From an uncultured Candidatus Saccharibacteria bacterium (lineage in GTDB: Bacteria > Patescibacteriota > UBA1384 > XYA2-FULL-43-10 > 1-14-0-10-43-13), in contig CAYQPT010000001.1 in assembly GCA_964419835.1 (NCBI GenBank), positions 10,367 through 67,897 on the forward strand: 57,531 nucleotides of DNA, written 5' to 3'. The first letter of the stretch is position 1. Every line of letters starts with the position of its first letter. Shown here in pieces: positions 50,987 through 52,069 of this stretch. The notes below the pieces were generated by a model. That model had not been told where the DNA came from, searched no databases, and saw only the letters and a program-made list of their open reading frames with translations. A program made the position numbers and the translations under genes.

Positions 50987-52069
50987 ATGTATGAAGAAAT
51001 CATATCAATTGATAATTTATTGATAGCTTGGCAAGAATTTATCGTGAACAAGAAGAAAAGAGCCGACATGCGGGTCTTTTCTAAAGATCTCTTATCAAAC
51101 ATTTTGTCGCTCCACGACGACCTTATTAACTTATCATACAAGCACTCGTCTTATCAACGGTTCAATATTAACGACCCGAAATCCAGAGTCATTCACAAAG
51201 CTATGGTCCGGGATAGATTGCTTCATCATGCGGTTTATCGGATTTTGTATCCCATATTTGACCGATCCTTCATCTTTGATTCGTATTCTTGCCGGTTTGA
51301 AAAGGGTACGCATAAAGCCGTCAGAAGATTAGAAAGTTTTACCCGTAAAGTAAGCCAAAATTACACCAAATCCTGTTATGCTTTGAAATGCGATGTGAAA
51401 AAGTTTTTTGATTCGGTTGATCATCATATTCTGCTGGAAATTCTGAAAAGAAAAATATCCGATGAAAATGTGCTATGGTTACTTCAGGAAATTATTGGAA
51501 GTTTTAATCGGTCAACAGATAATCAATTATCTCTCTTCGAAGGACTGGACGATTTGCGGAACGCAAATCGAGAGAGAGAGAGAGAGAGAGAGAGAGAGAG
51601 AGAGAGAGAGAGAGACGACAGCCTTCGGCTGTCTGGTAGAGGAATCCCTATCGGCAACCTTACAAGCCAATTATTCGCCAATGTTTATATGAATGAGTTT
51701 GACCAGTTCATTAAGCAGAAGTTAAAAATTAAATACTACCTGCGCTATTGTGATGACTTTATAATTTTATCTGACTCAAAGGAATATCTTGAAGGTTTAA
51801 TTGGCCAAATAGAGGATTTTTTAGGATCCCGACTAAAGCTGAAATTACATGAACACAAGGTCAGTATTCGAAAACTTAAACAAGGAATAGATCTCCTTGG
51901 CTATGTTGTATTACCATATCACACGGTTTTGAGAACCAAAACAAAAAGAAGAATGTTTAGAAAAGCTAACTCAATAAATATCACCTCATACACAGGACTA
52001 CTAGATCATTGCAATGCGTATAATTTAAAAAATATGCTTATTTGTGAAGTGCTGAGCCGCAAAGAATAG
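50987..52069 (+). CDS. DGR reverse transcriptase
   Basis: FFDSVDH, GIPIGNLTSQLFANVYMNEFD, YCDDFIIL (YxDD), GIDLLGYVV. ATG at 50987; the ORF-track TTG is at 50963. Confidence 0.85.
   Translation: MYEEIISIDNLLIAWQEFIVNKKKRADMRVFSKDLLSNILSLHDDLINLSYKHSSYQRFNINDPKSRVIHKAMVRDRLLHHAVYRILYPIFDRSFIFDSYSCRFEKGTHKAVRRLESFTRKVSQNYTKSCYALKCDVKKFFDSVDHHILLEILKRKISDENVLWLLQEIIGSFNRSTDNQLSLFEGLDDLRNANRERERERERERERERDDSLRLSGRGIPIGNLTSQLFANVYMNEFDQFIKQKLKIKYYLRYCDDFIILSDSKEYLEGLIGQIEDFLGSRLKLKLHEHKVSIRKLKQGIDLLGYVVLPYHTVLRTKTKRRMFRKANSINITSYTGLLDHCNAYNLKNMLICEVLSRKE
51570..51615 (+). repeat. (GA)23 dinucleotide microsatellite inside the RT ORF
   Basis: 46 nt of uninterrupted GA encoding (RE)n. Flanked by hairpins at 51551-51569 and 51617-51633. 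Confidence 0.95.

Follow-up and report, generated by a model that had tools for sequence, protein, structure and literature searches.

A (GA)23 repeat within the reverse transcriptase gene of a Saccharibacteria diversity-generating retroelement as a probable contingency switch of targeted mutagenesis

Diversity-generating retroelements (DGRs) are, to our knowledge, the only prokaryotic systems of targeted protein hypermutation. They are especially common in bacteria of the candidate phyla radiation (CPR) and in DPANN archaea, and little is known of how their activity is controlled. The closest described element to the one considered here is the DGR of Bordetella phage BPP-1, which consists of mtd with its variable repeat (VR), avd, the template repeat (TR) and the reverse transcriptase (RT) gene brt (structures 8ub7-8ubf) and for which no repeat-based switch was found reported in the literature searched. 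A different source of variation is provided by simple sequence repeat (SSR) contingency loci, with examples such as the tetranucleotide repeats of Haemophilus influenzae, the poly-G tracts of Campylobacter and the CT/GA dinucleotide repeats of Helicobacter. Intragenic loci of this type, in which slipped-strand mispairing causes phase variation, have been reviewed (PMC11868660, PMC3315296). Here a stretch of 57,531 nt (hereafter the window, to which positions refer unless prefixed with C1) from the genome of an uncultured Candidatus Saccharibacteria bacterium (assembly GCA_964419835.1, contig CAYQPT010000001.1, positions 10,367 to 67,897) was analyzed, in which a DGR RT gene carries 23 uninterrupted GA units in frame. 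This repeat is most likely, though not with certainty, a hypermutable SSR contingency (phase-variation) switch of DGR mutagenesis, heritable and reversible.

The tract occupies positions 51570-51615 of the plus strand as 46 nt of pure, uninterrupted GA, is reported by Tandem Repeats Finder (TRF) with 100% matches and is the sole long microsatellite of the 57.5-kb window. It is in frame within the open reading frame (ORF) 50963-52069 (+), where it encodes R(ER)7, residues 203-217, and it stands between two perfect hairpins which are part of the module: hairpin 1, GATTTGCG-GAA-CGCAAATC, at 51551-51569 (+), encoding DLRNAN, and hairpin 2, GACAGCC-TTC-GGCTGTC, at 51617-51633 (+), encoding DSLRLS, with a single C separating the end of the tract (51615) from the start of the latter (51617). 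A first-pass annotation, made from the letters alone, had described exactly this arrangement as a possible slippage switch in a DGR RT, and both the reading of the sequence and TRF confirm its anatomy. The cassette does lie between FFDSVDH and GIPIGNLTSQ, as had been claimed, namely between KKFFDSVDH (51398-51424, motif 3/A) and GIPIGNLTSQ (51641-51670, motif 4/B), although these are better named RT motifs 3 and 4 than the "fingers motifs" of that annotation. Its prediction that one or two units gained or lost would shift the frame while three would keep it was borne out when the unit number was changed in silico: 20, 23 and 26 units give the full-length RT, whereas the ORF is shortened to 241 codons with 21 units, 243 with 24, 224 with 22 and 226 with 25, in all four cases ahead of motif 4 and the catalytic YCDD (51746-51757). 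The assembled allele of this RT, being in frame, is ON.

The product of this ORF, 368 aa long from the TTG at 50963 (the likely start being the ATG at 50987), matches Pfam RVT_1 (E=7.6e-23). Its closest solved relative by sequence is the Bordetella DGR RT 8ub7_A (phmmer E=3.7e-43), which is also the top Foldseek match (TM-score 0.72/0.80) of its AlphaFold2 model, the mean predicted local distance difference test (pLDDT) value of the latter being 84. Motif 4, GIPIGNLTSQ, fits the I/LGxxxSQ type of the DGR clade. The loop between motifs 3 and 4 (51425-51640, +) exceeds that of the Bordetella RT by about 43 residues, with residues 168-224 standing in the phmmer alignment in place of residues 162-175 of the latter (13 residues versus about 56), and it varies in length among homologues. 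The cassette is accordingly part of an insertion when aligned with this homologue, in the motif 3-4 loop where 8ub7_A has 13 residues. In the model, which is confident for the remainder of the protein, the inserted part is disordered or of low confidence (pLDDT 44-55 over residues 181-220), so the cassette is predicted to occupy a flexible surface loop of the RT and a variable (RE)n should therefore be tolerated there.

Tracts of this kind recur at DGR genes. A search of 401 Patescibacteria genomes for the pattern (GA)10 matched 34 of them, and 19 of the 30 loci fetched, all with at least ten units, lie in or directly adjoin DGR-type RT or Avd genes, although such genes account together for well below 1% of a genome. 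Among those 19, the tract was found in the motif 3-4 loop in eight loci, in the motif 2-3 loop in two and in the RT N-terminus or 5' region in five; a further three are on the opposite strand upstream of the RT, two among the initial codons of a divergent Avd gene and one at a contig end. In L021 and L029 it is the first Avd codons, and not the RT, that contain the tract. As there are at least four different sites in RT and Avd genes, the tract follows the gene rather than one protein site, which is what a frameshift switch predicts and which argues against a fixed role in protein or RNA. In species-representative genomes a frame-blind pattern, in which (GA)8 is separated by 6-36 nt from motif 4, revealed at least 119 loci with eight or more GA units before motif 4, belonging to many Patescibacteria lineages and to DPANN archaea, the latter represented by Nano-, Woese- and Pacearchaeota metagenome-assembled genomes (MAGs; among L111-L190). 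A few tract-bearing MAGs are labelled Gammaproteobacteria, Bdellovibrionales or Actinomycetota and may be mis-binned. Every (RE)n run in those homologues whose DNA was read is encoded by pure GA, which is a signature of slippage and not of selection at the protein level.

The state of the switch in relatives was called by comparing the reading frame of the N-terminal half, determined with tblastn, with that of motif 4, and 78 of 80 fetched loci with a tract in the motif 3-4 loop could be scored. Only 15 of them are in frame, 36 being offset by +1 and 27 by +2. A metagenome scan ranked by tblastn E-value, which favours in-frame genes, was not used for these statistics. Both halves of the out-of-frame genes are intact: the alignment of the N-terminal half is free of stops in 63/63 and reaches residue 175 or beyond in 62/63, the ORF of the C-terminal half spans at least 137 codons in 58/58, and YxDD is kept in 77 of the 80 tract-bearing loci. 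Genes that are mostly off and yet intact across deep lineages must be on for part of the time. Within the family and order to which the organism of the window belongs, about one third of the RT genes are split at the motif 3-4 loop, and the closest relative, L242 (73% identity, NQLSLFEGL..., (GA)14), is itself out of frame.

Length polymorphism was observed directly in one relative, represented by five contigs from five samples (L250-L254) with a common layout of divergent Avd, QLSMF, hairpin and tract. Upstream of the tract their sequences agree at 600/600 nt and downstream at 599-600/600 nt (213/213 for the contig that is shortest and ends there), but the tracts contain 12, 6, 6, 13 and 13 units. 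Likewise, in several protein clusters formed at 90% identity the N-terminal halves are identical or one residue apart, while the number of RE repeats and the frame of the tail differ. Two near-identical RTs of a relative, P0221 and P0251, are distinguished by an additional frameshift within the motif 3-4 loop (…SFNTKGT* versus …SFNTKGKHDIGLPLGN), probably at an A-rich run, so that this loop may also be used by repeats of other types.

In the genome of the window (G000, 98.9% complete), MutS domain V (MutS_V) and MutL_C were not detected by searches in which control genomes were positive, so that the organism apparently has no canonical mismatch repair and the loops formed by slippage should stay unrepaired. 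Such a background, in which repeats expand easily, together with a loop that is disordered and length-variable among homologues, is what could be put forward for a neutral microsatellite, that is, a chance repeat without function, drifting in length in a permissive loop of a gene that the cell can do without. Without repair, however, repeats would be expected everywhere, whereas the 1.04-Mb genome has just three dinucleotide tracts of six or more units, all at its two DGRs, which argues for their maintenance by selection. The share of tracts at RT and Avd genes described above, the independent gain of tracts at four or more sites, and the intact halves of out-of-frame genes across many lineages, by which the gene must be in use, speak against neutrality too, and we regard it as very unlikely.

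The slipped-strand phase switch proposed by the first-pass annotation is supported by comparative evidence, namely by the recurrence of tracts in RT and Avd genes of hundreds of CPR and DPANN genomes, by the 63 of 78 loci that are out of frame with their halves intact, and by the presence of 6, 12 or 13 units between near-identical flanks. For the window locus the switching itself, its rate and its effect on mutagenesis are an inference. Slipped-strand mispairing during replication would add or remove GA units, with no detectable MutS or MutL to correct the resulting loops. Lengths of 20, 23 and 26 units would keep the RT in frame and add nothing but a variable (RE)n to the disordered motif 3-4 loop on the protein surface, while other lengths would end translation ahead of motif 4 and the catalytic YCDD, so that no cDNA would be made and diversification of the VR would stop. 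As the state would be heritable and reversible, a population would be a mixture of mutating and non-mutating lineages.

With the known SSR contingency loci this tract shares a perfect short coding repeat in which a change of unit number shifts the frame, the coexistence of ON and OFF alleles of an otherwise intact gene, and a length that is polymorphic between near-identical sequences (here in a relative). It differs from them in that what is gated is a polymerase for targeted hypermutation, and neither a restriction-modification enzyme nor a surface structure, in that the tract is located mid-gene, in a loop of the catalytic domain, and not near the 5' end, and in that it is unusually long (23 units) and at related loci often accompanied by a stable downstream hairpin. 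The hosts are also different, being uncultured CPR bacteria and DPANN archaea, for which no report of phase variation was found in the literature searched. Nor did a literature search for SSR, phase-variable or frameshifted DGR RTs return anything relevant, in agreement with the first-pass annotation, which was not aware of a phase-variable DGR RT described before. What would be new here is an SSR contingency locus, of a known kind, applied to a hypermutation engine.

Several points weigh against the switch. The in-frame share of 19% is under the 33% expected of unconstrained slippage (chi-square 8.5, p ~0.014, for loci that are not independent of each other), a deficit that calls for selection favouring OFF alleles or for a further level of control, for instance recoding. 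Hairpins are not obviously needed by a contingency switch, and yet one downstream of the tract is enriched. The contigs from 24 public runs in which this locus was found (Logan, built at k=31) end inside the tract, so they demonstrate more than 30 nt of it in each run and give no unit counts for the locus. No allele from the same species was found by the metagenome scan, protein searches and exact look-ups, the closest sequence being 82% identical (near-identical genomes left out). Finally, the tract lengths in relatives were taken from short-read MAG consensus sequences, which can hold errors.

The same runs bear on the reality of the tract. Long dinucleotide runs are hard to assemble, and an artefact of assembly or sequencing had been named as a possible way in which the switch would fall; but in at least nine public runs from at least five studies, including bioreactor, wastewater and digester samples, contigs whose flanks are identical extend about 30 nt into the tract from either side, which shows it to be real, and such tracts are present in more than 100 independent assemblies. 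The annotation's alternative, an RNA element used by the retroelement, taken here as a priming or template scaffold, would agree with the RNA-like appearance of the hairpins. It finds no support in that role: with Rfam covariance models just two tRNAs reach the gathering score in the window and no family matches at the cassette, which is 1 kb away from the TR here and located at quite different DGR sites elsewhere, and exact removal of the tract gives no common frame among the loci (23/21/34). Whether as an artefact or as such an RNA element, this explanation has a negligible probability. The same 23/21/34 split, as well as the lack of a conserved take-off and landing pattern, led to the rejection of an intron-like or bypassed coding gap of the type represented by T4 gene 60 and the mitochondrial byp elements.

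Both hairpins are stable for their size, with 28-nt windows folding at -8.1 kcal/mol for hairpin 1 and -11.5 kcal/mol for hairpin 2, within the lowest 1% of same-size windows of their own gene, while the structure of the 161-nt region overall is not unusual (z = -1.1). Hairpin 1 is kept in the subfamily with QLxLFD and limited to it. It shows compensatory changes at position 6 of the stem (G:C to T:A and the reverse) and, against L242, at position 2 (A:T to G:C and the reverse), but covariation at two stem positions whose arms also encode conserved residues is suggestive only. At the site of hairpin 2 the presence of a hairpin recurs while its sequence differs, as with GCTGTCGG...CCGACAGC in L030 and GCCGAAGGC-TCC-GCCTTCGGC in L242. 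A perfect hairpin of at least 5 bp begins 0-5 nt past the tract in 22/81 loci (27%) versus 7.8% of control windows, and the mean minimum free energy (MFE) just after the tract is -5.0 kcal/mol in the loci and -2.0 kcal/mol in the controls. Where the tract occupies the other insertion site in the RT, a hairpin comes after it too, as in the second RT of this genome (RT2, see below) and in L005/L006. The stem of hairpin 2 is closed by a cUUCGg tetraloop, and CTTCGG follows the tract in 6/81 loci versus 0.25% of controls. Loops of this type are specially stable in RNA, so hairpin 2 probably acts in the mRNA. To that extent the RNA-element idea retains some value, through the cUUCGg loops and the recurrence of the downstream hairpin at other insertion sites. 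A third structure, in which the GA tract would pair with TCTCTCTTC, the upstream sequence coding for LSLF, was considered and rejected: it is present in the MFE fold and absent in the centroid fold of the region with the above z-score, and relatives have TCCCTCTTT there, which is unable to pair, so the reading of these codons as a peptide motif was favoured.

An mRNA hairpin a few nucleotides past a repetitive sequence brings to mind programmed ribosomal frameshift sites, which likewise combine a sequence allowing tRNA re-pairing with a stable hairpin downstream. It could be proposed that expression is indifferent to the DNA frame, the ribosome or RNA polymerase slipping by 2 nt within the GA repeat, where AGA and GAG codons can pair anew, with the aid of the hairpin. 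Some full-length RT would in that case come from out-of-frame genes as well, the DNA length would set a dose in place of an on/off state, and recoding might coexist with slippage of the DNA. The presence of a GC-rich hairpin right behind the tract in about one locus in four, the excess of cUUCGg loops, the hairpin at the other insertion site and the fact that out-of-frame alleles are commoner than chance are all in favour of this possibility. Nevertheless, strong hairpins follow the tract in only 22-24/81 loci, leaving about 70% without one, and the tracts at Avd and RT 5' ends mostly have none; the offsets 0, +1 and +2 all occur (15/36/27) and none is conserved, unlike at known programmed sites; a slip of 2 nt would be required; and slippage in expression itself is without direct evidence. 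As most loci have no hairpin and no frame offset is conserved, recoding was rated as an addition to the DNA switch and not a replacement for it, and as an explanation of the tract it is improbable.

The RT under discussion belongs to a DGR which appears to be complete. The TR (50470-50586, +) and the VR (49995-50111, +), the latter at the 3' end of the target ORF 49447-50121, form a 117-nt repeat with 86% identity and mismatches at TR adenines. The spacer between the TR and the RT is filled by an Avd-like accessory gene on the minus strand (50585-50986), the start of which overlaps the RT start region; it matches Pfam bAvd with E=1.7e-08 and 35.3 bits, under the 40-bit curated cut-off, and the relatives L251-L254 share the divergent Avd/RT layout with bAvd on record. 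The RT fold, the I/LGxxxSQ type of motif 4, the adenine-specific differences between TR and VR and, putatively, the Avd-like partner are common to this DGR and that of BPP-1, whereas the Avd-like gene is antisense here, and the 13 residues of the Bordetella RT are replaced by about 56 comprising QLSLF, the hairpin-coding segments and (RE)n. At 47007-48212, immediately before the DGR on its upstream side, there is a CD-NTase gene (SMODS / DncV-like nucleotidyltransferase) of a putative defence operon resembling the cyclic oligonucleotide-based antiphage signalling system (CBASS).

A second DGR is encoded on the minus strand (C1:67563-70630) and includes a target gene with a lectin-like C-terminus, Avd and RT2, the 3' part of whose gene is located at 57197-57531 and extends past the end of the window. 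The tract of RT2, (GA)19 at C1:68496-68533, separates motifs 2 and 3 without breaking the frame and has the GC hairpin GGCGC-TGCC-GCGCC after it, so the second RT allele in the genome is also ON. The third tract of the genome, (GA)9 on the plus strand or (TC)9 on the coding strand (C1:70750-70767), lies about 120-155 nt upstream of the target gene of the second DGR, for which it may be a promoter or 5' untranslated region switch. The present window contributes in this way an ON allele and two tract-bearing RTs with different insertion sites in one genome, besides the RNA-type hairpins and a lead concerning the sliding clamp which is presented below.

Some further features of the tracts were recorded. 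In other Patescibacteria (L001, L009, L024 and L025) (GA)n or (TC)n is found at the 5' ends of large genes for secreted or surface proteins, and in L025 this is the N-terminus of a pilin-like protein with a C-terminus of the DGR-target type, which suggests a wider CPR "phasome". In L157 a (CT)n run directly abuts (GA)14 to form a perfect palindrome, and in L014 and L166 a run of G9 directly after the GA tract places two repeat types in series. The tract is followed by GTA in 30/81 loci and by GT in 40/81, and most tracts are preceded by C. A GAG-TAA or GAG-TAG after the tract creates an immediate stop in one frame, which may reflect either selection for the stop or a subfamily's descent from one ancestor.

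The peptide motif mentioned above is QLSLF, residues 188-192 (51524-51538, +), which lies within the inserted loop of the RT as part of NQLSLFE (51521-51541), just upstream of hairpin 1, in the peptide STDNQLSLFEGLD; it falls where the confidence of the model is lowest, the pLDDT being below 50 for residues 187-200. It is an exact match to the bacterial beta-clamp-binding consensus QL[S/D]LF, more generally QxxLF (PMC12309361). Binding to the sliding clamp DnaN has been described for the RT of the group II intron RmInt1 (PMC6698660) and for transposases (PMC4549789), and the genome of the window encodes DnaN, in the region C12:9889-10245; in the literature searched nothing was found on a clamp motif in a DGR RT. 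QxxLF was present in the motif 3-4 loop of 17/171 homologues versus 2.9 (maximum 8) in shuffled loops, an enrichment inflated by the kinship of the homologues, and its occurrence together with RE repeats in the loop was observed 7 times versus 1.4 expected. In other CPR DGR RTs (P0042, P0251, L008 and L026) the same peptide constitutes the extreme N-terminus and is then followed by the GA tract: MRRNINPNQISLFDS...(ER)n. Judging by its sequence, QLSLF may tether the RT to the replisome via the beta sliding clamp. The exact consensus pentapeptide in a disordered segment is shared with the clamp-binding motifs of replication, repair and mobile-element proteins, and the extreme N-terminal location in related RTs is typical of short motifs of this kind, while, unlike the known ones, the motif is putative here and restricted to a subfamily of these RTs.

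Given such a motif, the insert could be viewed as a module of the protein, presenting the clamp-binding QLSLF on a flexible (RE)n linker, with the DNA repeat being merely the coding of that linker. The exact match in a disordered loop, the N-termini of the other RTs with the same peptide plus (RE)n and the joint excess of motif and RE repeats are as expected from this explanation. However, QxxLF is found in 10/61 bacterial and 0/17 archaeal genes among the tract-bearing loci, being missing from the other 51 bacterial and all 17 archaeal ones, the codons are pure GA and 81% of the tracts break the frame, and in RT2 the motif 3-4 loop carries QPSLF at a distance from the tract of that RT. A protein module would account for what surrounds the tract in one subfamily and not for the tract itself, and is hardly credible as its explanation. 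A more tentative combination with the contingency switch, which we put forward as a possibility and would not expect to hold in full, is a two-part loop: QLSLF would tie the RT to the beta clamp and in that way link integration of the mutagenic cDNA into the VR to the replication fork, the GA tract would set production of the catalytic half, the OFF product being an N-terminal half that ends shortly past the clamp motif, and hairpin 2 may allow a ribosome slip of 2 nt and with it a trickle of RT from OFF alleles. We know of no established mechanism for the integration of DGR cDNA into the VR, and the clamp motif, if confirmed, would make this unsolved step directly testable.

If the GA tract does act as a contingency switch, targeted mutagenesis in these organisms would be a stochastic and heritable trait, with one mutation generator gated by a second, simpler one. 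Gating by repeats could explain why annotation reports many RTs of CPR DGRs only as truncated "RT domain-containing" fragments, as well as the share of DGRs scored as inactive in surveys, and RT genes split at GA tracts should not be dismissed as pseudogenes in annotation.

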